From assembly GCA_000092065.1 (NCBI GenBank), contig CP000598.1: 64,000 nt of DNA, one strand, 5' to 3'. Shown here one piece after another: positions 4,801 through 34,929 of this stretch (position 1 is its first letter; each line of letters begins with the position of its first letter). The notes below the pieces were generated by a model. That model was not told where the DNA came from. It saw only the letters and a list, made by a program, of their open reading frames with translations, and did no database searches. Made by a program: the position numbers and the translations under genes. Origin of the DNA: Ostreococcus lucimarinus. Its lineage: Eukaryota.

Positions 4801-7800
4801 ATAATTGCTTGACCGAGGACGAGACGGGAAGTTGCGATTGCTCTGATTACGACGTCGATTGTGGCGCCGCCGTAAAGCTGCCGATCACGGAATGGGACGT
4901 GAGCCTCATCGTGGATATGAACGAGCTATTTAAGGCTCGAGCAGCTTTCAATCAACCGGTTGGTGTTTGGAACACTAGTAGCGTGACGGATATGAGCGGC
5001 ATGTTTGAGAGCGCATCCGCGTTTAACCAGCCCGTTGGTAACTGGAACACGGGTAGTGTGACGGACATGAGCGGCATGTTTGAGAGCGCATCCGCGTTTA
5101 ACCAGCCCATTGGTAACTGGGCCACGGGCAGTGTGGCGGATATGAGCGGGATGTTTGAGAGCGCATCTGAATTCAATCAGAATATTAGTAGCTGGTCAGT
5201 CGCTTCTGTGGTGAACATGCAATCCATGTTTTCCTCTGCTTCATCCTTCGAGCAAGACATCACTGGATGGATTTCAACTAGTGTCACGACGGACATGGCG
5301 ACGGACATGTTTCTCTCTGCGACAGCTTGGCTGCGAACATTCGCACGCACAGATGGCGAAGACACCCCCCATGGTCCACCATCCGATTGGGGCGAACCGT
5401 GTGGCAATGGGTGGTACGATGAGAAAGTTCAGGGGGAGAAGGAGGATGACTTTTGTGAGCCAAAAGTGAACGGGATTGAAGTGAAAGGATGTGCAGATGA
5501 CTGCAAAGTAAAAACGAACTGGAAGTGCGACAATGTCGACTTGCTACGCCCCGGTGATGACTTCGACAGCTACAATTGTACGTGCGACAACCCGGTGGGC
5601 ACGTATGCATCACCTAATCTTGATAATGATTGTGCTCGCACAGATTGCGTTTATGTCGAACGGTGTCTCGCTAACGGCCTAGGCTGTGCGCCCGGTGCCG
5701 GTGGAATGTGGGACGTGGGACGTGGAACGTGGGACGCGGTGAACGCATGCGGCAAGTGCTTGAGGGCCGCTGATATTGCCGAGCTCCCACTCAACGAACG
5801 AAGTAGGCACAACAAGGCTGGCTATTACAAGACTGGGCAGACGTGCACGGCTTGTCCTGCGACATCAGCCGCGGGACTTTTCGCTGCGGCTGCGGTTGTC
5901 GTCGTCCTCGCTTTTTGTGGTTTCAAAGCCTCTCAATTGATGGGCGCTCAAGCGACGAACAATTTGAAGAAAATTGTCGAGTCGCTGCAGTTCTTCTCTC
6001 TTTCGCTCAGTATGAGTATCAAGTGGCCTGGGCCCGTACTCAATCTCGGTAAATATTTGGAAGCTTTCACGTTCAGCATTGAGTTTCTACGACCCCAATG
6101 CGTCGCTGCGGGGCTGGATTGGCTCAATATATTTTTGTCCTCGGTGTTTGTCGTTCCCGCTCTCATCTTCATAATCATCGTCGTGAACAATAGACGGGCG
6201 AGGCACCGTTACAAAACAACGGTGCGCGCGATCGACAGTGAACGACACGAGGATGGCGAAACGGTCTACTGGATCGAGAAACCAGGGTTCCTGTGGGGTA
6301 CGCGGAGAGCTTACGAGTCCAAGGGCGGAGATAAGATTGTTCGTGAGTTGCAGCGCCAGTATCGGTTTCGAGCCGCGCTTCGATCTTTCGGCGTACTGTC
6401 ACTGACCATCCTGTACCTTCCCATCGTGCGTATGTGCCTTCAGTCATACGATTGCATAAAGATAGACGGCGTGGATGGGCTTCGATTGGAGCATGACATA
6501 GATATCCTCTGTGAAAGCGAAGGGCACGTGATCATCCAGGCCGCCGCCGCGGTGATGTTGGCCATTGTCGGTATCGGCATGCCAATTTACGTCGTTATGC
6601 AAGTTCGTAAGATCCGTTTGAGTGGTAAACTGGATGATCCGCAGACTATCGACTCGTATGGTCCGTTCTACGACGTCTACCGGCGCGAGGAGCTCACACA
6701 TGATCACAAATTGGAGATTGCGAGGATTCGACAAACCGCGGTCGAGTCGTCCTCATTTCGACGAGGCGAAGGCACGAGCGACGAACGTCCTTTCGATGCA
6801 GCAACTGATGATATTGCAGAAGAAATCGCAAATGAAGTCAGGGTCGACACGGAAGAAGATTCAAGCGACGTCGATCGTGTTGACGTCGAGGACGATAGTG
6901 GCACTCCACCACCTCAGAAAGTTTCATCCGGTCTCGGTAAGCTCGCTCGGGCGTTAACGATGACGAAGTCTGCTTTAGGCCGGACGACGTCAGCGAAAGC
7001 GCGCGAACGGGCACATCGAATGCACTGGAAGGACAGGTTCGCGCTTCACTACCTGGCCGTTGAACTAGTGCAGAAGAGTTGCGTCATTTTGACGACGTCT
7101 CCGATAGTGGCCGAAACCGCGGTGAGCGGTTGGGCTCTGGTTGTCGTACACTGGTTTACCGGCGCCTTCGTCTACGTGTGTCAGCCTTGGCGCATCATGA
7201 CGCTCGGCTTCGGCAAATACAAGGTGCGAAATTGCTTGAACAAAGTCGAGTCCTTGGCTGGATTTTTGCAGGGCGTGGGACCGTTCTTGGCAATGATCTT
7301 CCCTGTTCAGAGAAACGAGTTCGGTGAGGTGAAGCAAACTGTGACACTCTCAGCCATAACTGTCCTGCTGACCATCATAATCACCGGGCTGCTTTCTATT
7401 CGTATCATTGTTTTCGTCGGCGAACGCGTCGCCGTCAAACGAAAGAAGATGGATATCGACAAGGATCCCGAGAAATGCATGCAAAATGTTCACAAACAAC
7501 TGGTCAAGCTCGCAACCAACAGAGCGATTGTGAGCATGTTTGCTTTCAAGGCAGATTTCGACATTAAGCGCCGTAAAGCACGCGCGAGGCTGGAAGATAC
7601 TCGCCAAGCGATGTTATCGCGCATCGATATCTTGAAGTCACAACAGACCGACGAGGACCATTCCGATAAAATTACCGCGTTGTACGAAGTGGCGAATGAA
7701 ATGGCACACATCGTGAATACGATCGTACCCCAAGCACCGCCAACAGGTCCAAACGCAGAAGGGTGTATCGAATTGCTGGATGAACAACTGGCATCAATTC

Positions 7801-9368
7801 TCAAGGACGTCGACGTCCGAGCGCAGGCGAACGCGTTAGACGCTCCGAATTCTGCGGCGGTACATATCGTGATGAAGGTCCACGCGTTCGATACAATCAT
7901 ATGTCGACTTGACGAACATTTGCTCGAATTCGCGGCGGCAGAACGTGTGAGTGAGCTCGCCGAGCTGGGTCGAAGACACGCTGAATTACGACATACGCGA
8001 CGTTGTGTCGCGATAGGTTTCGGCGACGCAGAGCTTCGAGCTACTTTCGATGCGCTAAGATCGTGCATCGAGGCACTCCGCCATGCCGTTGAGAACGACG
8101 ACTTCGAAGCTGTATTCACAACTTTCAATGGTGGGAAGGAGATCATTGATTCTCACTTACGATGGTGTCGGGATCAATGTGAATTGTTCAAGAGCGCCGA
8201 GGACGAGCACCCCGATTTCCTCGAGGACGAGCCTCCACTGACGACCGAGTTTTTCAAGGCGACAGTCAAGGTGATACAATCCCATGAAAAGCAACTGTCT
8301 AAATTTAAATCGGAATGTATTCGTAACTGGCCCCCGCTTTTCAAGAACTTTGGCCGCGTCAAGTACATACAAGGCTTTGCTGAGCAACTTCAGAATCAAC
8401 TCCATCTCGATCTCAATGAAAGCACGCCGGAGGAGGCCAAGGCTGTTTTCGATCAGGTGTTGGCCTTCACAGATGGCTTCGCGCTTTGGTGCGGCGATTT
8501 AGTGGCACAGGTCGAAGGCTCAGATGTCTTCATCTTGTTTGAGCCAATCGCCCGCGCGATGGTGGAAAGCTTGAAAGCCATCAGAGCAGACGCTGAGTCG
8601 CAAAGTGCACTCGCGAGGCAAGCATTGAGTACGATAGATTATGTGGTGACGCAACGGGCGTTGGCCGCAACGACGCGGTCGGGCTTGCAGACAGCACTCG
8701 CGGATGGTACGTCTGCGCTTGAAGACCAGCTCGCCGCAGAAATTGCAGACATGGACGCTGCGAAGATTTCTCGAGAGACTACTTTCGAGACCGAAAAGAT
8801 GCGCACCGAGGAAGCTTTGAATACATTAGAGCAAGAGTTGGACGGTAGGCGAGCGGTTTTAGAGGACGACATTCGATCGCAACAGGACACTATCGCGCGG
8901 CTACAAAACTTGAAACGGGAAGAGGCCGCGGCATCGAGCTCTATAAACCCGTTGAAATGGGAGCGTTTCAGTCGAAGCACTGAGCTCGCCGAAGCTGTAA
9001 GTGCACTCCGTATGAGCAAACAAAACTTGAAGAATGAAGAGCTTGCAAATGAGAAGGCCCGCGGGGATGCGCGTAAGGCGGTTCATTCGTTGGAACGGGG
9101 CCTGAAAAAGGACCTGGTCGAATGTGACGTCCGAGCAAAGAAAATCCGAGACGATGTGGCAAAGGAGCTGAAGAAACAAACTATGGATGCTCAGAGGAAG
9201 ACACCCGAAGATGCTAAAGCCCATAAGGCTAGTCTGGCTTCCAGGCGCGCGGTGTTCCAGCAACAACGCGCCGCCGCTAAACTCATCGCGAGCGAAAGTA
9301 GAGAAGCTACGCGAATTCAAGCACAGCTTGCATACTACATGCGAAATTTAAAGGCGCGCGAATCGTGA
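1839..9368 (+). CDS. Giant surface-type protein: DUF285 (PF03382, BspA-type LRR) repeat ectodomain, Cys-rich stalk, multi-pass membrane region, long coiled-coil tail
   Basis: Uninterrupted ORF (track 1545..9368, non-ATG start). The in-frame ATG at 1839 precedes the signal-like peptide [19 protein letters not shown]. About 35 repeats of F..A..FNQDI..WNT..VT.M..MF fall in four blocks, each with a Cys cap (..AVDSCL..G.C..). Roughly six hydrophobic helices lie between 5860 and 7440, followed by an acidic linker and a heptad-rich tail. Confidence 0.85.
1902..3655 (+). repeat. Internal tandem duplication, period 933 bp (1902-2722 = 2835-3655)
   Basis: The two 821-bp arms read identically base for base wherever I compared them. 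Antisense ORFs at 1845..2702 and 2802..3635 have identical peptides. The arms are separated by a 112-bp Cys-rich linker ([25 protein letters not shown]). Confidence 0.9.
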
Positions 9369-9499: not shown

Positions 9500-9703
9500 G
9501 GCTCACAAATCAGGCAAGAGAAGACAGGTGCACGTGCAAACTCTCAGCGGAACGAGTTGGTCGTCTCGAAGATCTCGGTGTTTGGTGAGACCAAGCCGAC
9601 GCACAGGAGGAGCACTTCGATGCCTGGAGGTACAGAAGATGTAACTCATCTTAAGCGTACGACTATTCAGACCTTGGGGGTTCCGCTTAAGATTTCTTCG
9701 GAA
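9500..9703. repeat. Diverged 3'-flank module, paralogous to 21905-22140
   Basis: Alignable by eye at roughly three quarters identity: gacaggtgc..gcaaa..ggaagagcacttcg.tgcctg.gggtacagaagatgta..aagaccttgggg.ttc..gcttaagatttc. Confidence 0.7.
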
Positions 9704-10190
9704 TGGAATCTCTGAACGCAAGGCGTGGATGTACATTAAACCATGAACGAGGCGGGCCACGGTTCGATTTTTTGGATTACAAGTGTAGGTCTACTTTTAC
9801 GTTTCGTGGACTCTGCTTGAGTCGGCCGATGTCACCATGTCAGTCAGGTGCTTCGAGTGCACTAGAGACGTGACCGCCCATACACAGGACGTCGAGCTCG
9901 GCGTGCCTGATTTCACGACTCGGCGACCATGGTTTGAAACCGAAATGACCATCGGCTTCAGGCCCAGGCGCGGCCGCAATGCTACTTTAAACTTAATATT
10001 TTTTTTTTGAAAAAAGAGTAGTAAGAGTAATAAAAATAAACTTTTTTTTGTTTGAGTTGGGGCACCCCAACATGATAAAACCGCACATCGCGGCGAGCCG
10101 CGCGACGACGATCACTTCGGTCACATTTCCAGTCAGTGATTCTCGTCGTGTGATTCATCGTGTTTGACGTCGACGTTGATGTACCACATG
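9704..10190. mobile_element. 487-bp insertion flanked by 16-bp direct repeats (small non-autonomous element, type unknown)
   Basis: taagatttcttcggaa (9688-9703) and taagatctcttcagaa (10191-10206) flank it. The paralogous site at 22125-22140 has one copy and no insert. The first ~315 bp recur at 16396-16703. There is an internal T-run/A-run at 10008-10016. Confidence 0.6.
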
Positions 10191-10227
10191 TAAGATCTCT
10201 TCAGAACCAATCGTGTGAGTGAAGTGT

Positions 10228-10725
10228 TCAGGCCAAGTCGCGTAACTCATCTAGCGTAAATTGATACTTGTCGAGACTGCGCTTTGAAGGCAGCGTGCCA
10301 CGCGCTCGAGCATTCTTGAGGCACGTCTTACGCAGTATTCTTTTCGCGTGCTGCTTGTAATAATTGAGTTGTCTGTAGTTACCATCGCCGCCGTCACGCT
10401 TCGGCGTATATTGGGCTCTGCTGTAGGCTTGACTCTCGTCCACGTTCTCGTGACACGCGTGTTTCTGGCTGCGTCCAGCAGCTCGGGAGTTGAATAAGCC
10501 GTCGCGCTTCTCTCTCATGTATGCACTTTTACGTTGATGGAGCTCTCCAGCTGGAATGTCCTTTTCGAGAACTCTCACGTCCGCGTCGCCAAACGTGAAG
10601 ATTGGATGTCGTGCGTATTTATGCGAGGCAAGGCGCGCTCTGAGCGAACCTGTCGTCGATCCGATGTACGTTTTGTCACATTTCGCATTATCGCTAAACA
10701 TTTCGTACACGCACCCCGTAGGCAT
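10228..10725 (-). CDS. GIY-YIG family nuclease-like protein (copy 1)
   Basis: ATG verified. N-terminus MPTGCVYEMFSDNAKCDKTYIGSTTGSLRARLASHK fits the GIY-(10-11 aa)-YIG motif plus the conserved Arg, with downstream E and N residues (AYMREK, FNSR). Basic C-terminal tail. Confidence 0.6.
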   Translation of the reverse strand: MPTGCVYEMFSDNAKCDKTYIGSTTGSLRARLASHKYARHPIFTFGDADVRVLEKDIPAGELHQRKSAYMREKRDGLFNSRAAGRSQKHACHENVDESQAYSRAQYTPKRDGGDGNYRQLNYYKQHAKRILRKTCLKNARARGTLPSKRSLDKYQFTLDELRDLA

Positions 10726-10894
10726 TTGTCCTGGTTACCTATCCATCCCTAAGAAAATATTGTTGCCTCCTCCTGCGGTTTGCAGTCACATTCGAGAGAC
10801 CATAGGTACTCGTGTCGCTGCGTGGGGTGCAAGGTCCGGGGTGTAGATATCGAACCGCCTGATTTCACACCTGGACGTTCGTGATCCGACGAGA

Positions 10895-11085
10895 CCTGAC
10901 GAAATGACGAACTTGTTTTGTCGTCCCCAAATTCGTCAGCCCGTCGTTCGGTCACACTTTGTGTGTACCAATGATGAAAATGACGAAATGTTAAAATATT
11001 TTAATGTTTATTTTTATTTTAGATCTATGACAAGCAACAGTGTAGACCTTTATGAAAACAGTTCGTCATTCGTCATTTCGTCAGG
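10895..11085. repeat. Inverted repeat around an AT-rich spacer (also at 22837-23027)
   Basis: cctgacgaaatgacgaac (10895-10912) is the reverse complement of gttcgtcat(tcgtcat)ttcgtcagg (11061-11085). The arms resemble an internal piece of the 9704-10020 element (cctgatttcac, caaaccatggtc). Confidence 0.7.
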
Positions 11086-11150
11086 ATCCAAACCATGGTC
11101 TTTTCGGTGTCTTGTTGAGTCTTCATATTGCAAATGTACGAATCACAAAA

Positions 11151-11669
11151 TTAGTATGAACACCAGACGACCGCCGGCGCGAGCTCCGTCTCCCCCGTGT
11201 ACCCATTGTTCTTCAGCCACTCGAAGCACCCGTCGCGGTCAATTTCCCAATAGACGCCCTTCTCGTCCCTACCTTGCCTCAGGTGGTCCTCTTCCATTGG
11301 GATCCTGTGGCCCTTTTCCTTCTTGAAGAAGTCCTTGAGCTTATTGCCGACCTTCGTCGCGCTATCTTGTCCACGCGCAGCCGCTGGCAACCACGTCTGG
11401 TATTCGATGAAGATGTCACTGTTGCGGATTTTATTTCCAACCCACTTCTCAGGGAATTCAACAGTGACGCAATGCTCAAACCATCGAGTGAACTTGGGCA
11501 TGCAGCCACGCTTCATTTCCGAATACGCGTCGGTCGTAGGTCTCGTGCGCTCCACATGATAACCGGTACGGAGAAGTTTATATTTATTAATTAAAGACTC
11601 GCGCGTGTTGGCGCTAAATGATTTTATTGCTGCCGAGAGACTCAAGTTTGGCCGTCGTTTGAGTCGCAT
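11151..11669 (-). CDS. Hypothetical protein (copy 1); weak resemblance to the C-terminal region of D5/P4-type primase-helicases
   Basis: The track ORF 11151..11726 starts at TTG; the first ATG is at 11669 (MRLKRRPNLSL..). The segment FTRWFEHCV..IFIEYQTWL..KVGNKLKDFFKK..GVYWEIDRDGCFEWLKNNGY is the basis for the tentative similarity. Function is unverified. Confidence 0.45.
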   Translation of the reverse strand: MRLKRRPNLSLSAAIKSFSANTRESLINKYKLLRTGYHVERTRPTTDAYSEMKRGCMPKFTRWFEHCVTVEFPEKWVGNKIRNSDIFIEYQTWLPAAARGQDSATKVGNKLKDFFKKEKGHRIPMEEDHLRQGRDEKGVYWEIDRDGCFEWLKNNGYTGETELAPAVVWCSY

Positions 11670-11746
11670 CGATGGGTCGCGCCCGCCGATATAACGCCGG
11701 CGTTTCGGACACGATCTTGAAAACAAGCACTGGTTGACTTGATTGA

Positions 11747-14272
11747 TTAGGAAACCTTATCCGTGCCTTTTACGCTGAGCCCGGTCATGGACGGCTTCGT
11801 CGGCATGGTGAACGCGGTGTAGTCCGCCGCCGTGGGCACCGTGATGCTCGTGTCGTACGACATCCCGGAGCACGCCGACGCATCGGCGGGAGCAAGCATT
11901 TCGACACCACTTTCGAGTTTCAAGACGTACCGGTCGCCAGTCGATGGTTGTTTGAACGTGGTGCCATCGGGGATCAGGACATCCGGACGGCGATGGTAAC
12001 CATTGTTGTCGTCGCACTCCTCGTTGCCATACTGGTCGACCTCGGGCGCCGCGCGCGAACCAGTCATCGGATTGAAGCAAATGAACGGCGCGTCGCCCAA
12101 CCAACCGCCTTCGTAACGCACGTTGAGATTCACCCCGGAGTAGTCGGTACCGGATGGAGAGCGCAGCAACACGGCGTCCGTGGGTATCTTGCCTTGAAGC
12201 TGGAGAGGCGCATCCATGAACTTCTTTGACGCGGAGTCCGAAGGATCTTCGAGCCACGCCATGCCCTCCCAATTGCTTGAGCTCCACTCGTAGTGCACAT
12301 CCAATTTGTTGGGTTCCTCGCAAACGTCGGTAGTGGCGGTGCAACTCAAAGTGTCGAGGTTCGCAGGTGTAGCTTCGAAGAGAACCATATGAACTTCTCC
12401 CGAGTCAAAGAATGAGTTGGTTGGGTCCATTACGACTTCAGCGCCGAGGGTGCCGGAAACGTCTTCCTTCAACGAGCCGGTATCTTTGTCGAAGACGTAC
12501 TTTTTATAAGTGCTTCGAGCGTCGTTGTATCCGTTCGGCGAGCCGTAGAACTGGCTGTCGTGACTGCTCGCACTCGATAGCTTCGTCTGGTCGATACACC
12601 GCTCGCCGCACGTGAGTGCGAGGTGGCTGCTGAGCGACCCAGGGGGGACGGTTTGCGCGTCAGACACTTTGAAGTGCGTCAGGTTAAGCAAACTCGCAGA
12701 GCCTCGGCCGAAGATGCTTCCCCAGCAGCGTATGATTTGGTTGTCAATGTCAGCCATCGTGAGCGCACGCGGAGTCGTGATTGAGTTCGTGTTCAGCGAT
12801 CCACCGTTCCAAGTTCGCTTCGACGACAACACGAGTGCGTTCGCGTCGGAGTCATACCTGAACTTGACCTCAACTTCTGCAGCGTTAGTGTCATCCCAGA
12901 ACCAGCCTGTGATCGTCGCCCCTTGGTAGTCGCTTGCGCTTCGCACCGTCGCCGTGAACTTGTACAACACCCCGCGTGAGACTTTGAGCCTCTTGTTCAC
13001 GTTCAGTATCGGATCATCCCAATCGACAATTTCCTCTACTACGTTCCCGTCGGTGAACGCGGTTTGAGCGATAGTCTTCTCGGCGGTACTGAGCGCGGTG
13101 TCGGAAATGTAGTCGTAATCGGAAATGTAGAGATTGCCCGGATAGTGCAGATCAGCATTATACGTCTTGCCGTCGCTGCCTGTAGCCTGAAGATGCACGT
13201 AGCTTTGAAGGTTCACCTTCGCCCCGTTGCTGTCGTACGCGCCGTAGCGCTCACCGAAGAACGATCTGTTCTCGAGTTCATCGCAGAATGACTGCCCGTA
13301 CGCCTTCGTCTTGACGAGCGTAGCGGTAGTCACCAATTGACCCGCTTGTGTCGAACCATTATCAAAGTCGATGGTCTGGAAAGAGGCCTTCGTGATGTCG
13401 TTTTCTGCGCGCGATTTAGCACCCGCGGTGAATGAATTGCTGCCTCGTGTCACCTCTTCCCACCACGTGACCCCGGTCGCCGTGCAATCCGAATCCGCGT
13501 CGGTGGTTTCGCACTCGCGACGAACCACACCTTTGATGCGTTGGGACGCGGTCGAGCCAGTCGGCGATTGGTACGTAAAGGTAAAGTTTTTCACCAAGAT
13601 TTTGTCAGACTTGATGGCGACGTCATCGCGCTTGACGATCATTTCCGTGTCGATGTTCGGCATTTCTGGGGTATCGCTGAGGGCTACCCAGACGTTCGTC
13701 TTGAAATCACGGGTATCGCTCGCGTCGTCGATGTCTGGGCCCGTGGCGTTGACGACCCAACGGTACGTAACCTTACCCTTGATTCGGTCGCCGTCGCTGT
13801 TGTCACAGTGGAAAGGATCGATCTCAGCGATGTATGGGCCAGTGTTCAGGTTCGCCGTCCAGTTCACCGAGGCGACGTAGCAAAGAACCATGTTTGGTAT
13901 CTGGAAAATTTCGGTACTTACAGCGTCGACGAACGTCTCCGCCGGCGGCGCCGTGGCGTAGTCGGACGTCGAAGAGAACGAAGACACTTCGAGAGGCGTC
14001 ACCTCGACGAGCGAACGACCATCGATTCGAGACGAACCAGAAGACGTCGTCGAAACACCCTCTGACGGGATCATGGTGACTTTACGCGGCGTCAACGCCG
14101 CCTTGAGCGCGTTCGTCTTCGCCGCGCCCGACAGCCCGCTGACGGTGGTCGGGGTCGGGGCCGGGGCCGGGGTCGCGTCGTCATCCCTGAGCCCGATGCC
14201 GAGGCCGGTGCCAAGGGCGACCACCACGGCGGCGACACCAACGATCGCGATCGCAACGCCACGTCTCACCAT
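11747..14272 (-). CDS. 841-aa membrane-anchored protein with a large Cys-containing extracellular-type domain, unknown family (copy 1)
   Basis: ATG verified. N-terminal anchor MVRRGVAIAIVGVAAVVVALGTGLGIGL, a PAPAPTPTT linker, then a long uninterrupted ORF with a non-repetitive, protein-like sequence. Confidence 0.75.
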   Translation of the reverse strand: MVRRGVAIAIVGVAAVVVALGTGLGIGLRDDDATPAPAPTPTTVSGLSGAAKTNALKAALTPRKVTMIPSEGVSTTSSGSSRIDGRSLVEVTPLEVSSFSSTSDYATAPPAETFVDAVSTEIFQIPNMVLCYVASVNWTANLNTGPYIAEIDPFHCDNSDGDRIKGKVTYRWVVNATGPDIDDASDTRDFKTNVWVALSDTPEMPNIDTEMIVKRDDVAIKSDKILVKNFTFTYQSPTGSTASQRIKGVVRRECETTDADSDCTATGVTWWEEVTRGSNSFTAGAKSRAENDITKASFQTIDFDNGSTQAGQLVTTATLVKTKAYGQSFCDELENRSFFGERYGAYDSNGAKVNLQSYVHLQATGSDGKTYNADLHYPGNLYISDYDYISDTALSTAEKTIAQTAFTDGNVVEEIVDWDDPILNVNKRLKVSRGVLYKFTATVRSASDYQGATITGWFWDDTNAAEVEVKFRYDSDANALVLSSKRTWNGGSLNTNSITTPRALTMADIDNQIIRCWGSIFGRGSASLLNLTHFKVSDAQTVPPGSLSSHLALTCGERCIDQTKLSSASSHDSQFYGSPNGYNDARSTYKKYVFDKDTGSLKEDVSGTLGAEVVMDPTNSFFDSGEVHMVLFEATPANLDTLSCTATTDVCEEPNKLDVHYEWSSSNWEGMAWLEDPSDSASKKFMDAPLQLQGKIPTDAVLLRSPSGTDYSGVNLNVRYEGGWLGDAPFICFNPMTGSRAAPEVDQYGNEECDDNNGYHRRPDVLIPDGTTFKQPSTGDRYVLKLESGVEMLAPADASACSGMSYDTSITVPTAADYTAFTMPTKPSMTGLSVKGTDKVS

Positions 14273-14409
14273 CGTCGCGCGTTGAAATGCGGCGACGACA
14301 AGTGGCGACGGTGACGCGATCTGCCCGCACGCAATTCAATTCCTTCGGGTCACCTTATCTTTTGGAGCCCCCGGAAACGCGACTGTTTACCAATACGATG
14401 GTTCCCGGG

Positions 14410-14685
14410 TATTGATTACTGGGCCTGTTGGCGCCCCGCGGGTGTGTGTGTGCCAGCCCGTAGGGTTTAAGGTTTAGGATCCGAAATATGGAGCCTCGCT
14501 ATTAAGCCGGGGATCCTCCGCGGGCACGCGCCCCCGCGGGCGTGTGTGTTTTCGCGGTCGGTCGGACGGGAAGCCTGTTGGCGCCCCACGGGTTTGTGTG
14601 TCGGTCCTTAGCGTTTGGGGTTTAGTATCGGACATACGGAGCCTCACTATTTAGCGGTATGACCACATATATTAATTGATTTATA
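14410..14685. repeat. Degenerate telomere-like / subtelomere-like block (1.5 units); related block at 17466-17640
   Basis: Shared unit: ggggatcctccgc..ccgcgggcgtgtg..ttcgcggtcggtcggacg..ccgttggcgccccgcgggtttgtgtg..agggtttag.ggttaggatcggacatatggagcctcactatttagc. Confidence 0.8.
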
Positions 14686-14759
14686 CCATTCATCCCGCGC
14701 ATAAAATCGGGTAGATTACTGTACAGTAATCTACCCGACTTTATGCGCGGGATGAATGG
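14686..14759. repeat. 74-bp near-perfect palindrome (36 of 37 arm positions pair)
   Basis: ccattcatcccgcgcataaaatcgggtagattactgta|tacagtaatctacccgactttatgcgcgggatgaatgg; centre ctgtacag. Weaker arm similarity extends about 25 bp on each side. Confidence 0.9.
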
Positions 14760-14936
14760 CATAAATCCCATAGTATATGGGGACCGGACCGGCGGGACGT
14801 GTGATTTTTTACCGTAGGGGTCATGATTGGTCGTTCGGGGGTACTCGTATGAAATAATGAAACACCATACTTTTATTTACATTTTGGTTTATTAAAAAAA
14901 CCCGTACGTGCATTTACTACAGAATTGACCACTTTT

Positions 14937-15065
14937 CGCGCGGGTTTCACCAGAAAGCTTCAAAAATCGTGCCTTTTCTAAAACTCAATTTTCGCTAGGG
15001 TTTAGCGCCCCCGGTTTTCCGAGGATGCGGGCAGATCTCGCCGTCGGCGCCACTCGTCGACGACC
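14937..15065 (+). promoter_or_regulatory. Telo-box 5' module, copy B
   Basis: AGGGTTTAG at 14997-15005, gccactcgtcgacg at 15049-15062, upstream ATG at 15025, main ATG at 15066 in the context gaccATGG. Confidence 0.6.
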
Positions 15066-16181
15066 ATGGCCTCCCCGTCGCTCGATGCCGTGCGTTGGAG
15101 CGAATACCGGGCGCTCATGCAAGCGTGGGAAGCGTTTAACCCACACAGGGAGCTCCTGCGTCGGTTTTTACAGAAGCAATCGCACACGGAGCAGTGCCCA
15201 CCCGGCGTCCCGTACGTACCAGATCTGCCGGAGCCGGAGTACTTCGCCGTGAAGAGACGAATCGAGGCCGGGGAAACCGTTCCATGTCCTGGATTCTTAC
15301 GCGAACGCGACAACCGGCGCAATCAATGCCGCTGCGGGGCTCCACTCAGAGTTGATGACACTGGCAATATCTCCTGCACTTCCAAAATTCCCCGTCATGA
15401 GAACTATGGTCCTGTACCTCGTTGCTGTTGCTGGGCCGAAGAAGAGCACGCTCGTAACCAACGACATGACATGCCGCCGTATATTTTAAGGCCGCCACCC
15501 ATAGTGTCCCCCCCTCAAGTACCACCGTCGTCTCAAGTGCTCTTGAGCTTTTTGGAGGGGGTCAGGCCAAGCATGAACGCCAACTACCTGCGATGCGTTC
15601 AAGACATAGACGAAGAGCTCGCTCGTCTGAATGAGCAGCTTGCGGACAACAGCATTTCAACGACGAGGCGTGAAGCGATTCAACAGCATATAGTGAGCGA
15701 ACGCTCCAAACTTGAGGCCAAAGACACACAGTTACAAGATTTTTTTAACACGACGACCGCACTGGCAGAATCCGTGCACACGTTCGAGCACAGAGTGGCA
15801 GAGAAATACCAGAAAGCTGTGGATGCATACATTAAAGCGCAACTGGATGAAGTGGTCGTACCTCCGGATAGTAGAGGGAATCCAAAGTTTAAGGACTCAG
15901 TCGATGGCATCGACAGAGAGTTGGCCAAGTTAGAATCAGAAAATGGAGGCATCTCCAACGACAGCGCTCGCGCTCGCGTCGCCTCCAAACGTAAGAGCGT
16001 GGAAGAGTGTGAATCAGAGCACAAGCGCCTCAAAACCACTTCGGTTGAGTACAACTTGTCTATTTTGAAAGGGAGTTTGGAAAAAGACAAATCTATGTCT
16101 GCTGAAGACAAAAGACGCTGGGAATGCGTCATAAACGCCGTCGGGTTGTTACGAGCAAACGATGCACCAAGAACGCCGTAG
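15066..16181 (+). CDS. Coiled-coil protein of unknown function, paralogue of 18177..19220
   Basis: ATG verified. Shared block NYLRCVQDIDEELARLNEQLADNSISTTRREAIQQHIVSERSKLEAKDTQL versus NYLRTVERIDKNIQVLEAQLQDENISETRRSVIPQHIEDTRAKLKEQDNSL. Confidence 0.7.
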   Translation: MASPSLDAVRWSEYRALMQAWEAFNPHRELLRRFLQKQSHTEQCPPGVPYVPDLPEPEYFAVKRRIEAGETVPCPGFLRERDNRRNQCRCGAPLRVDDTGNISCTSKIPRHENYGPVPRCCCWAEEEHARNQRHDMPPYILRPPPIVSPPQVPPSSQVLLSFLEGVRPSMNANYLRCVQDIDEELARLNEQLADNSISTTRREAIQQHIVSERSKLEAKDTQLQDFFNTTTALAESVHTFEHRVAEKYQKAVDAYIKAQLDEVVVPPDSRGNPKFKDSVDGIDRELAKLESENGGISNDSARARVASKRKSVEECESEHKRLKTTSVEYNLSILKGSLEKDKSMSAEDKRRWECVINAVGLLRANDAPRTP

Positions 16182-16186
16182 CAACA

Positions 16187-16245
16187 GTATGGGCAAACAG
16201 TTAGGCGTTCTCCATGGCCTCCATTCGCGCGACCAGAGCGTTGAC
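16187..16245. repeat. 58-bp junction module, second copy at 20768-20825
   Basis: gtatgggcaaacagttag...ttctcca..gcctccattcgcgcgaccagagcgttga. It lies 5 nt after the TAG of 15066..16181 here, but inside the ORF at 20768. Confidence 0.8.
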
Positions 16246-16395
16246 GCGCTCTTCGAGTTCGTCGATGCGGCGTTGTTTAGCGTCGTTCGCGCTCTCTACA
16301 TCGGCGCGACATAGAATAACGATAATCTATATCTGCTATATCTGCTTAATATTCTGCTTAAGATTTCGGCACCCTCGCTTAAGATCTCTTCAGAA

Positions 16396-16703
16396 TGGAA
16401 TCTCTGAATGCAAGGCGTGGATGTACATTAAACCATGAACGGACCACGGTTCGATTTTTTTTATTACAAGTGTAGGTCTACTTTTACGTTTGGTGGACTC
16501 CGCTTGAGTCGGCCGATGTCACCGTGTCAGGTGTTCAGAGTGCACTAGAGACGTGACCGCCGATACACAGGGCGTCGAGCTCGGCGTGCCTGATTTCACG
16601 ACTCGGCGACCATGATTTGAAACCGAAATGACCATCGGCTTCAGGCCCAGGCGCGGCCGCAATGCTACTTTAAACTTAATATTTTTTTTTTGAAAAAAGA
16701 GTA
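16396..16703. mobile_element. Second copy of the 9704-10020 element core
   Basis: It starts immediately after cttaagatctcttcagaa (16378-16395), the same sequence as the flanking repeat at 9688-9703. It is collinear up to the T-run/A-run gaaaaaagagta, and no matching right-hand repeat is seen. Confidence 0.6.
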
Positions 16704-16756
16704 CTATAGTACTTTTGGTGTTTAAACGTGTTCGTGATATGATTGATAGTCCGTGA

Positions 16757-17407
16757 TTATACGTCGACTTTTGCGGGCGCCTGTTGGACGTAGATGACTT
16801 GCGGCTGCTGCGGCCGCGTCGCCACGGCGGTGGCGATGAGCTGGTCGCGTCGGTACGCGAAGCACCCGCACCGCCCACAGTAGCAGCACGAGACGATGAG
16901 CAACGTCAGGCCGACGACGGTACCAATGATGATGCCCGCGATCGCGCCACCGTCTGGTTTACAGCAGTCGTCACCGCAGCATACGTTTTGGCCGCCCGTG
17001 TACATACTGCACCATTTACCGCCTTTTTTGTGGAGTGGTGGGCACCCGTGGGCGCCGTCCCAGCATTTGGCTCCATTGGCAACTTCCGTGGCGATTTCTG
17101 TTCCACACGAGGTGTAACTGGAAATTGTGTCCGTACACTTGGACGGGCACGATTGGTCGATCGAGTTGCCATACGGTGGCGGTCCCGCGCTGCACCCGAA
17201 ACAGTCTGAGCACACACCGACCGTCACGCCGTTGTAGGTCCCGGTGTTGTAACAGAACTCTTCGCTCGATGCCCAGGGGTTCGCGCTCGCGTAGCCGCTC
17301 GAAACAACGCAGTCGGTGTGGGTTGAACACGTGTCGCCCGCGTCCGCGCGCGCGGTGTGCGCGACGGCGAGGCCGAAAACGAACGGTACGAGGAGGTTCT
17401 TAAACAT
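16757..17407 (-). CDS. Cys-rich type I membrane protein (signal peptide, Cys-rich ectodomain, one TM helix, short tail)
   Basis: ATG at 17407 gives MFKNLLVPFVFGLAVAHTARA. Many Cys residues (CCGDDCC). TM helix AIAGIIIGTVVGLTLLIVSCCYC. The track ORF extends to 17464 from a non-ATG start. Confidence 0.6.
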   Translation of the reverse strand: MFKNLLVPFVFGLAVAHTARADAGDTCSTHTDCVVSSGYASANPWASSEEFCYNTGTYNGVTVGVCSDCFGCSAGPPPYGNSIDQSCPSKCTDTISSYTSCGTEIATEVANGAKCWDGAHGCPPLHKKGGKWCSMYTGGQNVCCGDDCCKPDGGAIAGIIIGTVVGLTLLIVSCCYCGRCGCFAYRRDQLIATAVATRPQQPQVIYVQQAPAKVDV

Positions 17408-17465
17408 CTTTGGCGTGGGTTTATCTCGCAAAAGGATTTCAGCGAGGCTTGAGGTGCGCCGCAAA

Positions 17466-17640
17466 GTGAGGCCCGGAGATCCGGGGATCCTCCGCAGCCC
17501 CGCGGGCGTGTGCCTGGCGTGTGCCCTTCGCGGTCGGTCGGACGAGGGGCCCGTTGGCGCCCCGCGGGTTTGTGTGCCAGCCCCAGGGTTTAGGGGTTAG
17601 GATCGGACATATGGAACCTCACTAATTAGCCGCATGACCT
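17466..17640. repeat. Degenerate telomere-like block, homologous to 14515-14685
   Basis: See 14410-14685. Contains cagccccagggtttaggggttaggatcggacatatggaacctcactaattagc. Confidence 0.8.
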
Positions 17641-17838
17641 CATACATTAAGTTATTTATATCTAGTCATCGCGCGAAATGGCGTGGGTAAATTACCGTAC
17701 TAGGGTTTCCGTAAATAAAATACGTACCGAAAATAATGAATTAATTTACACGGGCGTGCCACGACGTCGTCGCACGCGCTCGTGAAAATTTGGTTGACGG
17801 CTTGGATTCGAGATTTTGGGGAGGTAAAATTCGGCCAA

Positions 17839-17880
17839 ATCCCGCGCATATATTACTGTACAGTAATCAAAGCGCGGGAT
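17839..17880. repeat. 42-bp palindrome related to 14686-14759
   Basis: atcccgcgcatatattactgta|cagtaatcaaagcgcgggat; same ctgtacag centre and same atcccgcgc/gcgcgggat arm ends. Confidence 0.85.
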
Positions 17881-18009
17881 GTGGCCAAAGTCTTTGGGTC
17901 ACAGCCCCTCACTTTGGGGGCTGCAGTGACGGGATGTGGGAATTTTACCGTATGGGTCGTGACTCGTCGTTGGGGGTACTACTATGAAATCCCATAATTC
18001 TATTGTACA

Positions 18010-18176
18010 TAGGGTTTAGAAATTAGGGTTTAGACGTCAAAAATCGCTCGGGTTCCATCAGAAACGTGTCAAAAACGGGCCTTTTCTGAAACTCGATTTT
18101 TGCTAGGGTTTAGCGCCCCCGGTTTTCCGAGGATGCGGGCAGAGCTCGCCGTCGGAGCCACTCGTCGCCGCACACG
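18010..18176 (+). promoter_or_regulatory. Telo-box 5' module, copy C
   Basis: tagggtttagaaattagggtttagac at 18010-18035, core with AGGGTTTAG at 18105-18113, and a 15-codon uORF (18133-18180) whose TGA overlaps the main ATG (ATGA). Confidence 0.6.
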
Positions 18177-19220
18177 ATGACCGATTCAGTCGCGCACGCC
18201 TCACCGACATGGAGAACGTACTCATTAAACCCGTCGCTGCAACCGGACTGGATGAACGGCACGGCGGAGGTAGAGGCGGTCAAAACAGCGGAGGATGATC
18301 TCGAGCGCTCGTACAAGAACAAGCCGTTCTTCAAGGACGCAAGCTACGAGGCATTCGCCAGACAACGAGACGAGTATGACAAACCGACGCCCGACGGCCT
18401 CGAGGAGTTCAAGCGCATCTTACGGTCGAATTATCTTCGCACCGTAGAGCGCATCGATAAAAATATCCAAGTTCTGGAAGCCCAGCTACAAGACGAGAAT
18501 ATCTCTGAAACGCGACGGTCGGTTATCCCGCAGCACATCGAGGACACTCGTGCGAAATTAAAAGAGCAAGACAATTCATTGAACGCGCTGTGCGCCGATG
18601 TGGATGCGGTTATCGCAGATTTGAAAGGCTTGCCCGATAAAATTGCCGACATTAAAGAGCGCGCCTCTGAACAACTTCAGCGACACAAAAGAAAAAGGAC
18701 TAATGCATCTTTGGAACGCAACCTCGAGGAGTTGAGCGATGCGTTGCGCAGCTACGAGGCGAAAAAAGAACAGGAGAGGCTCACCCTTTGTGAACACCAA
18801 ATTCGCCAACAGAATCTGCCATTGTCCCAGTATGTTCGCTACTCAGGGGGAGGAGTTATCGACGTTGTTCATCCTGTGGGTGTCATCGGCTGCGATGGTA
18901 GTAACCTCAGCGTTGATGGTCGTGGTGGTCGTGGTGGTCGTGGTGGTCGTGGTGGTCGTGGTGATCGTGTTCTTTCGGTTAATCGTCAACGTTACTTTGA
19001 AGTGCCACAATGGCGGCCTGAATGGGGACCTGAGAAGCAATTTTGTGCGTGCAAGAGCTTCCAAGAATGGTACAAAGTCGACGCCGGAGACCTTCTTTAC
19101 AGCGCGCTTCGTGGCGTAGAGGGCGCGCTAAAGGCGCTCAGTGGTTCGGGAGATGACACCTCTTCGCTTCGACGGCGCTTGGGCGATGCCAATTTGGACG
19201 AGGCAAGCACAGGGAGTTAA
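18177..19220 (+). CDS. Coiled-coil protein with an RGG repeat, paralogue of 15066..16181
   Basis: ATG verified. Shares the NYLR..ID...L..QL.D..IS.TRR block. DGRGGRGGRGGRGGRGDR is encoded by a GGTCGT-type microsatellite. Confidence 0.7.
   Translation: MTDSVAHASPTWRTYSLNPSLQPDWMNGTAEVEAVKTAEDDLERSYKNKPFFKDASYEAFARQRDEYDKPTPDGLEEFKRILRSNYLRTVERIDKNIQVLEAQLQDENISETRRSVIPQHIEDTRAKLKEQDNSLNALCADVDAVIADLKGLPDKIADIKERASEQLQRHKRKRTNASLERNLEELSDALRSYEAKKEQERLTLCEHQIRQQNLPLSQYVRYSGGGVIDVVHPVGVIGCDGSNLSVDGRGGRGGRGGRGGRGDRVLSVNRQRYFEVPQWRPEWGPEKQFCACKSFQEWYKVDAGDLLYSALRGVEGALKALSGSGDDTSSLRRRLGDANLDEASTGS
18918..18968 (+). repeat. In-frame hexanucleotide microsatellite (ggtcgt/ggtggt) encoding the RGG box
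   Basis: ggtcgtggtggtcgtggtggtcgtggtggtcgtggtggtcgtggtgatcgt read directly. Confidence 0.9.
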
Positions 19221-19758: not shown

Positions 19759-19946
19759 TAGGGTTTAGAAATTAGGGTTTAGACATCAAAAATCGCCGAG
19801 GTTCCATCAGAAAGTTGTCAAAAACGTGGCTTTTCTAAAACTCGATTTTTACTAGGGTTTAGCGACCTCCGGTTTTTCGGCGGAGGAATTGCGTGCGGGC
19901 AGATCTCGTCGTTGTCGCCACTCGTCGACGCGGCGATGCTCTCAAC
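19759..19946 (+). promoter_or_regulatory. Telo-box 5' module, copy D
   Basis: tagggtttagaaattagggtttagac at 19759-19784, core AGGGTTTAG at 19853-19861, gccactcgtcgacg at 19917-19930. The upstream ATG of copies B and C is GTG here. Confidence 0.6.
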
Positions 19947-20767
19947 ATGGCAAAGGTGAAGATAATGCTAATATTGTCGATGGTGTTGATACTGCGCATG
20001 CCGAGCGCACTCGCAGGCGCACTCACACACGCACTCCTCCGTGTGGGTGGTCCACGTGTAAGGCAAGCTGTCGAAAAAGGGATGAAACAAGGCATTATGG
20101 ATTCGTTTCCAGGAGGCGTCCAGGACCTCCTCGCATACTTGCACCGCCACAGAGAGGACGAAATCAAACAGGAGTTTGGGTGCATGGCGCTCATGATCAT
20201 GTGCCGGGAAAACACTGAGAACAGACGCATCGCCGGAGAGCAGGGCGCGATCCAGGCCGTCGTGAACGCCTTGAACCGCCACAGAGAGAACAAGGAAGTG
20301 CAGAGGGACGGACACATGGCGCTCGTGATCATGTGCGAGGACAACACCGAGAACAGACGCATCGCCGGAGAGCAGGGCGCGATCCAGGCCGTCGTGGACG
20401 CCTTGAACCGCCACAGAGGGAACAGGGAAGTGCAGAGGGACGGACAACTGGCGCTCGCGATCATGTGCAAGGACAACACTGAGAACAGACGCATCGCCGG
20501 AGAGCAGGGCGCGATCCAGACCGTCGTGGACGCCTTGAACCGCCACAGAGGGAACAGGGAAGTGCAGAGGGACGGACAACTGGCGCTCGCGATCATGTGC
20601 AAGGACAACACTGAGAACAGACGCATCGCCGGAGAGCAGGGCGCGATCCAGACCGTCGTGGACGCCTTGAACCGCCACAGAGGGAACAAGGAAGTCCAGG
20701 CGAACGGGCACATGGCGCTCGCGAGCATGTGCATTAACAACACTGAGAACAGACGCATCGTAGACGC
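19947..20767 (+). CDS. ARM/HEAT-like repeat protein, probable exon 1 (the ORF itself continues to the stop at 20825)
   Basis: ATG at 19947 (MAKVKIMLILSMVLILRMPSALAG). About 4.5 tandem 44-aa units NTENRRIAGEQGAIQAVVDALNRHRGNREVQRDGQLALAIMCKD, which match the armadillo-repeat pattern. Confidence 0.6.
20110..20760 (+). repeat. 132-bp (44-codon) tandem repeat array inside the ARM-like gene
   Basis: Unit starts (aacac.gagaac) are at 20211, 20343, 20475, 20607 and 20739. Units 20343-20474 and 20475-20606 differ at 2 nt. Confidence 0.9.
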
Positions 20768-20817
20768 GTATGGGCAAACAGTTAGTTATTCTCCACAGCC
20801 TCCATTCGCGCGACCAG
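20768..20817 (+). other. Candidate 50-nt GT-AG intron joining the ARM ORF to the downstream ORF
   Basis: GTATGG donor at 20768 and CAG acceptor at 20815-20817. Removing it restores the frame (..RRIVDA|ALKDSGRSDDAQINALY..). Hypothesis only. Confidence 0.3.
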
Positions 20818-21832
20818 AGCGTTGAAGGACAGCGGGCGCAGTGATGATGCGCAAATAAACGCACTGTACGCGATTGCAAACGAGATGGCGCACGCTGTGA
20901 ACATGATCTCGATTCAAGGTGTCGCTGAAGGCCCGGGCGTTGAAGAACGAGTAAAACACACACAAGATTTCCTACAGCAACTTTTGTCGGACGTCGACAT
21001 CAAACTTGAGATCGAAGAAAAGCAAAACGCCGAGGCTCTGCGTGTGGTATTGCGAGTGCACGCGTATGGTCGTGCCATGAAAATTATCGAGGATCACATG
21101 CTAGAATATGCGCGCGCTGAACAAGTGGAGGAGCTGGCCGTGCTCGGACAAGAATCTGCGGCACTGTTAGAAGAACAAAACCTCCTTTCCATGGGTTTTG
21201 GCGTCAAGGAGCTGAATATGTCGATACTGGCAATCGACGCGGAGCATTTCACTGTGCACCTAGAGAAAGCTACTTCCCTGGACGAAGTCGGCAGTGCTGT
21301 GGCCATTCTCAACGCCGTCAATTCCATTGCAGTCCGTCATCTCGAGTGGAGAGATGCGAGCGTTGCAACTTTTAGCCACCTTGAAACCGAAGAGTCCATT
21401 GGTATTGAAGTCAAAATCAACAGGGACGTACTATATTCTGCTGCGATGCTTCTGAAAGATCACGAATCCCAGCTGAACCAAGAACTGGCGAGGCGCGCGC
21501 GCGAATGGAAGCTTCTGTTTAAGAATTTTGGAAAAGTGAAATTCAACCAGACGCTTGAAGAAATGGTTCAGGTGGAGCTCACCTCGCCTGAAGGCGCGGA
21601 CGCTGATTTAACACGCCGTGCTAAAAAATTTGTGGATTGGTGCGTGGAATCTTCACAGCAGCTGAGCCGAGGGGAGTTTAACCAGCGTCTTCCTGGGATT
21701 ACGGAAACGGCATATATCAGCCTAAAATCCCTCGCACAGAAGTCTGCCAGTTCGCTCGTTAAGATCGCACAAAAAACAGCTGCATCGAGGCGTAGCAAAA
21801 CAAAGACGTCAATATTCGGGTTTGCGCGCTAA
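20818..21832 (+). CDS. Domain paralogous to residues encoded at ~7640-8520 of the giant gene; probable exon 2 of the ARM gene, or a 5'-truncated relic
   Basis: INALYAIANEMAHAVNMI vs [53 protein letters not shown] vs [46 protein letters not shown] vs [11 protein letters not shown]. There is no ATG at its 5' end. Confidence 0.5.
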
Positions 21833-21904
21833 ATCCGCCAACCGAACGCCAGAATTGTTATGTTACGCTCGATGATAACATGGTTGGGTTGGGGCAAATG
21901 CCCA

Positions 21905-22124
21905 CAAATCAGCGTCAGGCGAAGGAAGACAGGTGCGTCTGCAAATTCCAAATTCTCGGCAGAACAAGTTCGTCGACTGGAAGAGCTCGGCCGGTTTGGA
22001 GACAAACCCGCCATATTGGAAGAGCACTTCGCTGCCTGAGGGTACAGAAGATGTAGCTAATCAGAAGCGTGCGACCGTTAAGACCTTGGGGATTCGACTC
22101 GCTTAAGATTTCGGCACCCTCGCT
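21905..22124. repeat. 3'-flank module, copy 2 (see 9500-9703)
   Basis: Collinear with 9500-9703 and carries the uninterrupted target sequence cttaagatttctccagaa at its right end. Confidence 0.7.
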
Positions 22125-22161
22125 TAAGATTTCTCCAGAACGAATCGTGTGAGTGAAGTGG

Positions 22162-23611: not shown

Positions 23612-23688
23612 CGATGGGTCGCGCCCGCCGATATAACGCCGGCGTTTCGGACACGATCTTGAAAACAAGCACTGGTTGACTTGATTGA

Positions 23689-34700: not shown

Positions 34701-34929
34701 CCGAGCGTATCGAGTGAACGCATACGTCACGCGATCGCGGACTCGCGATGCGTACGTCGACGCGTTCGGCGCCGCGACGTCGTCGACTCGTCGGCGGACG
34801 CGCGCGCGTGTCCTTCGTCGCGCGCTGTGCAGGGCCGGAGTTTTTCACGCCCTCGGCTGCGTCAAACAAAAACCCGTCCTCCGAAACACACCGGCGTCCT
34901 CACACCGCCGCGCTCGCGGCGTCGCCTCG

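Follow-up and report, generated by a model that had tools for sequence, protein, structure and literature searches.

We show that a near-perfect palindrome of 74 bp (positions 14686-14759) in a 64,000-nucleotide stretch of the Ostreococcus lucimarinus CCE9901 genome, hereafter the window, is a head-to-head junction between two copies of a conserved terminal motif of about 45 bp, which we call T. Modular upstream regions carry T at their gene-distal end, so that the axis of the junction lies mid-intergenic, between divergent genes, and it is at this axis that haplotypes recurrently exchange: the same arm is found with different partners across strains and loci, the switch falling at the axis. 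The original prediction, made from the letters of the window without database searches, had pointed to this palindrome and to a related one of 42 bp (17839-17880); that the element centres a bidirectional intergenic region and that its axis is a recurrent exchange point go beyond it. Two proteins of the window match CCE9901 entries exactly (Table 1), on a record of 149,386 bp that we take to be chromosome 18, the small outlier chromosome (SOC) of this strain. The explanation that we favour, with somewhat more confidence than doubt, is that T is a promoter cis-element whose abutted pair breaks, exchanges cassettes and homogenises its arms.

Anatomy of the T junction

The first palindrome has no spacer and, as originally described, its 37-nt arms differ at a single mismatch (A14706/C14739) around an axis at 14722/14723 with the centre TTACTGTACAGTAA. 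It is real and non-random: 30 shuffles of the whole window that preserved dinucleotides gave arms of 14 nt at most when up to one mismatch was allowed, and as single-stranded DNA the palindrome folds at -48.8 kcal/mol (z = -15.8). An imperfect symmetry around the same axis reaches 60-nt arms, past which the left flank is a U arm and the right flank a P arm, two of the classes defined below. The second palindrome is an imperfect one, with outer stems of 9 bp (ATCCCGCGC/GCGCGGGAT), an inner stem of 6 bp and a conserved asymmetric bubble of 5 nt; it widens to 17830-17889 at 83% and folds at -20.9 kcal/mol (z = -7.7). Its predicted kinship with the first is borne out by the 16-mer ATTACTGTACAGTAAT, which within the window is present in these two sites only (expected 0.02). 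Both also lie where they had been said to lie, about 300 nt upstream of telo-box genes (307 nt to the downstream ATG for the first, 297 nt for the second), with a telomere-like block on one side and the telo-box module GCTAGGGTTTAGCGCCCCCGGTTTTCCGAGGATGCGGGCAG on the other, an identical copy of which precedes the ATG downstream of each. The two upstream regions, which had been regarded as homologous throughout, proved to be collinear blockwise and not homologous end to end: in the alignment, the counterpart of the first palindrome's left arm is 17664-17700, a non-palindromic site made of a single arm, and the second palindrome is located within an insertion, some 140 bp beyond that site.

To define the arms, we tabulated every TTACNGTACNGTAA site with its flanks across the window and the collected contigs, which are designated here by numbers prefixed with L. 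Read outward from the axis, T consists of AC-N-GTAAT, a spacer of 15 or 5 nt and the box GCGCGGGAT, which therefore starts 23 or 13 nt from the axis, two positions that differ by 10 nt, that is, one helical turn. The 15-nt spacer comes in three discrete subtypes, a (CCCGAYTTTAT), b (CCCCCGGGATGT) and c (CCCMCGCCATT), and subtype b carries a GGGAT box at both the 13- and the 23-nt positions. Two abutted copies of T thus form a symmetric core, ATTAC-NGTACN-GTAAT, flanked by phased GCGCGGGAT boxes. We detected no rule for the pairing of short and long spacers, of the 12/23 kind, all combinations being present among the junctions compared.

The upstream regions capped by T fall into three classes of arms. 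U arms have about 155-175 nt in common, with ATAAATCAATTAATATATG, AAATAGTGAGGCTCCATATGTCCGA, a CCCTAAA block of 2 to 2.5 units and CCCGCGGGGCGCCAAC, after which they run into differing leaders and ATGs. P arms lead into a TTTTACCGTA box and then into a telo-box and leader module, common to several genes, before reaching the gene, and S arms, with the short spacer, lead into the upstream region of a gene of 392 aa. The inventory of the T family in the window amounts to two junctions, one single arm and one degenerate terminus (Table 1). The first palindrome, the most symmetric of the family (36/37 complementary over the first 37 nt of each arm), joins the distal upstream region of the minus-strand 841-aa gene, a U arm, to the upstream region of the 371-aa gene, a P arm. 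The truncated second U unit behind the former is intact as far as the axis in the haplotypes L006 and L016. The single-T U arm lacks a partner: TAGGGTTTCCG comes right after its axis, TAGGGTTT directly after the site at 17700, and the matching place in L049 is occupied by a U/U junction. The S-type arm of the second palindrome has its telo-box/leader module at 18044-18170. The T family is low-copy and was recovered only from Ostreococcus outlier-type DNA.

The distance from axis to ATG is 344 nt for the 371-aa gene, about 450 nt for the 841-aa gene, 290 nt for the 217-aa gene and 318 nt for the 347-aa gene; overall, the axis is found mid-intergenic, about 260-450 bp from the flanking ATG of divergent genes, and the geometry is the same in L016, L031, L035, L036 and L049. 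This fixed position, the several conserved sequence blocks, and promoters better conserved than the coding sequences that they drive speak for a purely regulatory palindrome, namely a dimeric transcription-factor site or bidirectional upstream element, devoid of special fragility, whose arms would have diversified as paralogous promoters recombined homologously and underwent gene conversion in the ordinary way. The promoter modules of the 371-aa and 347-aa genes are 87% identical (127 nt) versus 34% (89 residues) for the proteins, and, judged by eye, the Cys-rich gene in L049 has a U arm very like that of the window, the proteins being 53% identical. Candidate sites would be an SBP-type GTAC core, homeodomain-like TAAT halves and the E2F-like TCCCGCG, and a block-wise co-regulation of outlier-chromosome genes is known from the literature. 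Against this alternative, the telo-box modules at 1236-1304 and 19795-19863 lack T, which is therefore not obligatory for telo-box promoters, and the behaviour of the axis in other haplotypes is difficult to accommodate, as described below.

Exchange of arms at the axis

The window was compared with three sets of contigs. The first encodes an identical or about 99% identical 841-aa gene and, having been fetched by protein, is unbiased with respect to the motif; the second comes from a single pattern scan of JGI metagenomes (11 contigs, about seven new junction types); the third is a 595-kb long-read contig from an Ostreococcus relative, found via a homologue of the 217-aa gene. The JGI scan also answers the suggestion, made at the outset, that further copies be sought: all 11 contigs are outlier-type promoter DNA.

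Four haplotype states occur at the 841-aa locus, with one U arm and different right-hand partners: U/P in the window, U/U in 13 contigs from different samples (L006, L007, L016, L018-L025, L028 and L032), a variant U/U in L027, and U joined to unrelated DNA in L026. The last of these matches the window at 99.1% identity as far as 14729, which lies 7 nt beyond the axis, after which the two are unrelated. Considering all sets, U, P and S arms are met with in many combinations (Table 1); the JGI scan contributed S/S, P/S (L029), S/U (L031), P/U (L033, L034) and U/P (L035) junctions as well as U/U junctions with unlike spacers (L036, L030). The complementarity of the arms over their first 37 nt goes from 13/37 in L035, a value lowered by a 12-nt insertion at the centre, and 21/37 in L029 up to 36/37. 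Lesions cluster at the centre as well: 12 additional nt in L035, a loss of about 6 nt with 8 nt of filler in L049:6680, and 5 nt deleted in L049:9730, the partner arm being replaced from +2 at window position 17698, from about +8 in L026 and from +21 in L024. This crowding of indels and partner replacements within a few nt of the axis, together with the sharp switch between near-identical haplotypes, counts against the purely regulatory palindrome, which we hold to be unlikely while taking it seriously. The 12-nt axis insertion ACAGTAATCTGT (L035:1513-1524) consists of GT and a T-terminus stub of 10 nt, and resembles what would remain after an inter-axis segment was deleted or a hairpin was opened off-centre.

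The inner arms of the first palindrome are locally homogenised. Spacer subtype c characterizes five other P arms and the U arm of L026, an otherwise 99%-identical haplotype, is of subtype b; the first palindrome of CCE9901 has subtype a in both arms. Because of this mismatch with its relatives, the inner ~37 nt must be a symmetric patch, for which the simplest explanation would be that one arm was converted using the other as template, through intra-palindrome gene conversion or hairpin-templated repair.

The original prediction had also envisaged fold-back scars of breakage-fusion events next to healed telomere sequence. Symmetric arms in the window, L006 and L016/L037, as well as the TAGGGTTT directly following the single-arm site at 17700, would be in agreement with a fold-back or breakage-fusion-bridge scar. 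Nevertheless, different arm classes and spacer subtypes meet at the same axis, the heterologous pairs U/P, P/S and S/U make a simple fold-back impossible, and unrelated loci have the same centre and boxes. As for the healed telomere, the block is internal to the U module: 2 to 2.5 repeats occupy a fixed spot inside the conserved ~175-nt module at many loci (in most U arms and at all loci sampled), and only about 1 to 2.5 telomere-like units are ever present. We thus give hardly any credence to this origin.

Table 1. Elements of the window associated with T and junction types compared (window positions, unless a contig is named)
Feature	Position	Strand	Composition or remark
Palindrome 1	14686..14759		Two T termini, spacer subtype a, head-to-head
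Extended palindrome 1	14663..14782		60-nt arms, 88% complementary
Palindrome 2	17839..17880		Two short-spacer (S-type) T, axis 17859/17860
Complete U arm	14573..14722	-	T, ATAAATCAATTAATATATG, AAATAGTGAGGCTCC, telomere-like CTAAACCCCAAAC block, CCCGTGGGGCGCCAAC
Partial second U unit	14420..14510	-	Truncated at 14509/14510
Degenerate short-type T terminus	14403..14421	-	TCCCGGGTATTGATTACTG, outer edge of U units
P arm	14723..15065	+	T, GAATGGCATAAATCCCATAGTATATGGGG, TTTTACCGTAGGGGTC, telo-box promoter/leader module 14936-15062
Single-T U arm	17466..17700	-	T at 17664-17700, ...GGGTAAATTACCGTAC; upstream of 217-aa gene
S-type arm	17881..18176	+	Merges into P-type promoter (TTTTACCGTATGGGTC), upstream of 347-aa gene
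5' relic of 392-aa gene	17773..17835	-	Fused directly to S terminus of palindrome 2
841-aa gene XP_001422333	11747..14272	-	Read away from palindrome; exact protein match
371-aa gene XP_001422295	15066..16181	+	Coiled-coil-like, no Pfam domain; exact protein match
217-aa Cys-rich membrane protein gene	16757..17410	-	ATG at 17410
347-aa gene	18177..19220	+	Distant paralogue of 371-aa gene
U/P junctions	Window palindrome 1, L035		
P/U junctions	L033, L034, L049:6680		
U/U junctions	L006 type (13 contigs), L027, L030, L036, L049:9730		
S/S junctions	Window palindrome 2, L016:1796 type, L037, L038		
P/S junction	L029		
S/U junction	L031		
Arm joined to unrelated DNA	L026, L024, window 17698		

Proposed breakage and repair of abutted T copies

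The modular anatomy of the arms, the position of the axis at the centre of the promoter region, the exchange at the axis, the lesions clustered at the centre and the local homogenisation can be brought together in a single model. T would be a putative protein-binding cis-element of co-regulated promoters, with its ATTAC-NGTACN-GTAAT core and its GGGAT boxes phased by 10 nt. Because two copies abut, the centre of the junction would be prone to form a hairpin or cruciform and to break preferentially. End-joining repair of such a break to another broken junction, or to other DNA, would swap arms and whole promoter-gene cassettes, contributing to the hypervariability of the outlier chromosome. Repair templated by the opposite arm would, in turn, homogenise the arms, which may explain why the inner 37 nt of the CCE9901 copy are almost perfectly symmetric. 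This model keeps, in part, two of the roles initially proposed, those of a cruciform- or hairpin-prone element and of a binding site for a dimeric protein. SOC hypervariability, large inverted repeats, translocations, tandem duplications and probable end joining have been documented in O. tauri and O. mediterraneus, and the literature covered on outlier-chromosome rearrangement assigns no motif to them. Within that incomplete literature we found no description of a palindromic junction, of U, P or S modules, or of an Ostreococcus telo-box or inverted-repeat promoter element, which is absence of evidence only.

Several observations weigh against this model. Arm exchange is documented in wild haplotypes, but protein binding, breakage and cruciform extrusion are predicted from sequence. 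Metagenome contigs can be chimeric at repeats, although the main junction types recur in independent samples. Haplotype breakpoints also occur off the axis (14397, 14405, 14509, 14927 and 14963), implying that the outlier chromosome is a mosaic everywhere, not just at T junctions. Finally, most heterologous junctions have an intact 14-nt centre, a feature more in keeping with a conservative (site-specific) exchange, or with plain inheritance combined with homologous exchange, than with end joining of an error-prone kind. The pattern of the JGI scan demanded an intact centre and both GCGCGGGAT boxes, so that their conservation in the seven junction types that it yielded is partly a matter of ascertainment.

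The intact centre, found in at least eight different arm combinations, could also indicate that the T/T' pair is the target of a recombinase or domesticated transposase and that dedicated machinery cuts it at the NGTACN core and rejoins the ends head-to-head, with precise swapping or inversion of cassettes, in the manner of lox/FRT, integron attC or retained V(D)J signal joints (heptamer to heptamer). The architecture of T, with inverted putative binding elements around a short core, would suit such sites, the two spacer lengths differ by exactly one helical turn (10 nt), and the host chromosome, according to the literature, rearranges rapidly and in a programmed-looking way after exposure to viruses. 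The machinery could be derived from a transposase, for instance one related to the Harbinger-like nuclease of O. tauri. On the other hand, we found no recombinase gene in the window or among the ORFs (open reading frames) scanned near junctions, short and long spacers are paired without rule, damaged centres and off-axis breakpoints are common too, and the intact centres owe something to the scan pattern. We therefore think a dedicated system quite improbable; if it existed, the alga would be actively permuting promoter-gene cassettes on its ‘viral immunity’ chromosome.

Alternatively, T might be the terminal inverted repeat of non-autonomous cut-and-paste transposons, the junctions being their abutting ends. 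The centre ...CTG-TA-CAG... resembles two ends of the Tc1/mariner type (TA + CAGT) sharing one TA, which flanks the termini CAGTAAT, CTGTAAT and CGGTAAT. Inverted T copies bound every inter-axis segment, and such segments, like 14723-17700 (2978 bp, with two convergent genes), would be mobile and would rearrange through reversed-ends or alternative transposition. The subterminal GGGAT boxes are phased by 10 nt, as is often the case in transposase-binding sites, both 14403-14421 and L031 show a tandem stack of T termini, and the outlier chromosome of O. tauri is reported to carry a nuclease derived from Harbinger. Nevertheless, neither the window ORFs of at least 250 aa nor the junction-adjacent ORFs scanned contained a transposase/DDE domain, and a Pfam scan of 40 ORFs from the window and the junction loci revealed neither a transposase nor a recombinase domain. 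The family has very few copies, no identical T-bounded segment stands in two different contexts among the contigs compared, single-arm sites keep the whole GTAC and not TA alone, and the relocated 371-aa cassette in L001 is not bounded by T. Altogether, abutting transposon ends appear a distinctly unlikely explanation.

Nor is the palindrome simply the joined ends of a common miniature inverted-repeat transposable element (MITE), an eventuality that the original prediction had raised. It is low-copy, recovered from 11 contigs in the JGI metagenomes, always in outlier-type upstream DNA, and has neither outer termini nor target-site duplications. In the arms compared no MITE-type outer termini were found, the conserved termini facing inward and the U arms running into differing leaders, the P and S arms into promoters. 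The best-delimited U/U copy, L006 (...GGA-GCCCGTTGG and CCAACAGGC-CCA...), shows no target-site duplication. A PIF/Harbinger-type MITE with outer ends GGGCCTGTTGG was likewise discarded, since most U arms run on (CCCTCGTCCGACCGACCGCG...) and there is no TTA/TAA duplication. Other identities were also sought. There was no Rfam match at gathering score, only sub-threshold hits to hairpin-shaped microRNA models, ARAGORN found no tRNA, and a structured RNA encoded by the U unit was rejected, the consensus fold of 10 U arms being weak and unconvincing on either strand. A viral origin was rejected after two IMG/VR scans, whose patterns covered the palindrome and the single arm, gave 0 matches; L050, the one contig of clear prasinovirus character among those fetched, has no T or U blocks.

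Several known systems share traits with the T junction. The human palindromic AT-rich repeats (PATRR) PATRR11 and PATRR22 are the palindromes behind the recurrent t(11;22) translocation. Similarly to them, the T junction is a near-perfect palindrome in the range of tens to hundreds of bp that is capable, judging from its arms and folding energy, of forming a hairpin or cruciform; exchange between loci yields hybrid palindromes that switch at the centre (L029, L031, L033-L036), and small deletions and insertions are found there (L035, L049:6680, L049:9730), although most centres are intact, partly through ascertainment. In contrast with PATRR, it is not AT-rich, measures 74-120 bp instead of several hundred, occupies a defined promoter position, has conserved boxes and keeps most hybrid centres intact. 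By analogy, a T junction would act as palindromes do in mediated translocations, with breakage predicted, but we do not file it as a PATRR.

In the var genes of Plasmodium, the ups classes are conserved upstream modules of a variant gene family. As with these and with bidirectional promoters, a few classes of highly conserved 5' modules precede divergent, non-homologous or fast-evolving genes in a hypervariable compartment; the genes are arranged head-to-head, as around symmetric bidirectional promoters, and T stands between them at a consistent distance, as expected of a bidirectional-promoter cis-element. Unlike var ups, the Ostreococcus modules end in a common terminal motif and are joined at zero spacing into a palindrome. 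Mobile elements offer a third comparison, through the alternative transposition of Ac/Ds, the TA-CAGT ends of Tc1/mariner and foldback elements. Inverted terminal motifs, a TA-CAGT-like centre and an association with inversions, deletions and duplications are shared with foldback elements, MITEs and reversed ends, whereas low copy number and the lack of outer ends, of target-site duplication and of any transposase in the scanned ORFs are not, and T arms continue into upstream promoter modules. In O. mediterraneus, a 1,001-bp spacer with 225-bp inverted repeats occurs on the outlier and five standard chromosomes (PMC13390643). It is likewise a non-coding inverted-repeat element with repeat arrays, on an outlier chromosome of the same genus; it differs in size and copy distribution, the comparison being by description and not by sequence.

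The T junction thus combines two known kinds of element, a recombinogenic palindrome and a conserved module placed upstream of genes in a hypervariable compartment. In Mamiellales, the small outlier chromosome has been linked to resistance to prasinoviruses, the giant double-stranded DNA viruses that infect these algae, and rearranges extremely fast. In this context, the T junction is a candidate shared regulatory element of co-regulated SOC genes and a candidate preferred breakpoint for cassette shuffling, which could provide a sequence-level handle on SOC hypervariability. It matters all the more to research on the outlier chromosomes of Mamiellales because it would be a testable sequence determinant of cassette shuffling. 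Even if T were only a promoter motif, it would still be a useful marker of outlier-type promoters.

Genes and repeats around the junctions

The gene content of the window is SOC-like, with a giant DUF285 ORF, glycosyltransferases, FkbM methyltransferases and sugar-nucleotide enzymes, to which a nucleotide-sugar transporter and a DNA C5-methyltransferase are added. Its first 26 kb are pieced together from segmental and tandem duplications. One of the segmental ones, about 4.5-5 kb long (9500-14405 and 21900-26353, copies about 12 kb apart), carries the 841-aa gene twice, the second ORF having 843 aa. U units and palindrome are upstream of the first copy only, and the homology of the second ends at 26353, next to the position of the degenerate T terminus. 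The outer edge of that terminus lies no more than 6 nt from the points (about 14397-14405) at which this second copy and the L017 haplotype diverge. The relic of the 392-aa gene corresponds to the first ~60 nt of a gene that follows the S arm in other strains; some 300 nt of promoter and the remainder of the gene have been lost.

Several unrelated genes, on both strands, have a shared 5' leader ahead of the ATG, GAATTGCGTGCGGGCAGATCTCG...GCCACTCGTCGACG, located at 14289-14337 (841-aa gene), 19886-19934, 26237-26285, 15026-15062 and 18134-18171; similar ...CACTCCTCGACGC leaders come after the U arms of L034 and L036. This leader could serve outlier-chromosome genes as a common element of the transcription start or of the 5' untranslated region. 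Telo-boxes (TAGGGTTTAG) number nine in the first 20 kb (expected 0.01) and zero in the other 44 kb. They are often paired 14 nt apart, about 60-160 nt upstream of ATGs (1205-1214, 1294-1303, 14996, 18010-18113 and 19759-19862).

The cassette of the 371-aa gene (14963-16254), comprising the gene, about 100 nt of telo-box promoter and a 73-nt 3' module, recurs with 99.8% identity at L001:1653-2944, in a 64-kb ENA contig with 61.8% GC (over 5.9 kb), between genes for a TatD DNase and a bestrophin. In L002:52-1379 the upstream homology stops elsewhere, at 14927, and both L001 and L002 stop at 16254. Either cassettes of promoter, gene and 3' module travel between standard-GC DNA and the outlier chromosome, as these matches suggest, or the assembly is chimeric. 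A homologue of the 217-aa protein is encoded at L050:5573-6307 (51% identity over 59% of the query), a 42%-GC contig with a capsid gene of nucleocytoplasmic large DNA viruses (NCLDV) and PolB, which is probably a prasinovirus; this gene family is common to host and virus. Homologues about 70% identical (L039-L048) are found on outlier-like contigs of 50-54% GC, where their neighbours are genes with weak GIY-YIG or weak EcoRI-methylase-like matches.

Nested inverted repeats are common in the palindrome region. An inverted-repeat pair (GGCTATATAGTACTTTTGGCGTTTAAACGTG...) at L016:1610-1670/2500-2570 brackets the S/S junction and a 107-aa ORF, about 900 bp apart, and a related GGCTATATAGTACTTTTGGCGTTTAAACGTG copy is found in the window at 16700-16740, downstream of the 371-aa gene. 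Tandem repeats within coding sequences include the 75-nt (25-aa) DUF285 repeats of the giant ORF at 1545-9368, in which 1902-2201 and 2835-3134 are exactly the same, 132-nt repeats at 20053-20844 that encode armadillo-like repeats (ORF 19938-20825), and a 9-nt GGTCGTGGT array encoding RGG repeats in the 347-aa gene (18914-18976). The ORF 34624-37266 associates, on the outlier chromosome, a C5 cytosine DNA methyltransferase with mono-CXXC and Tudor-like domains.

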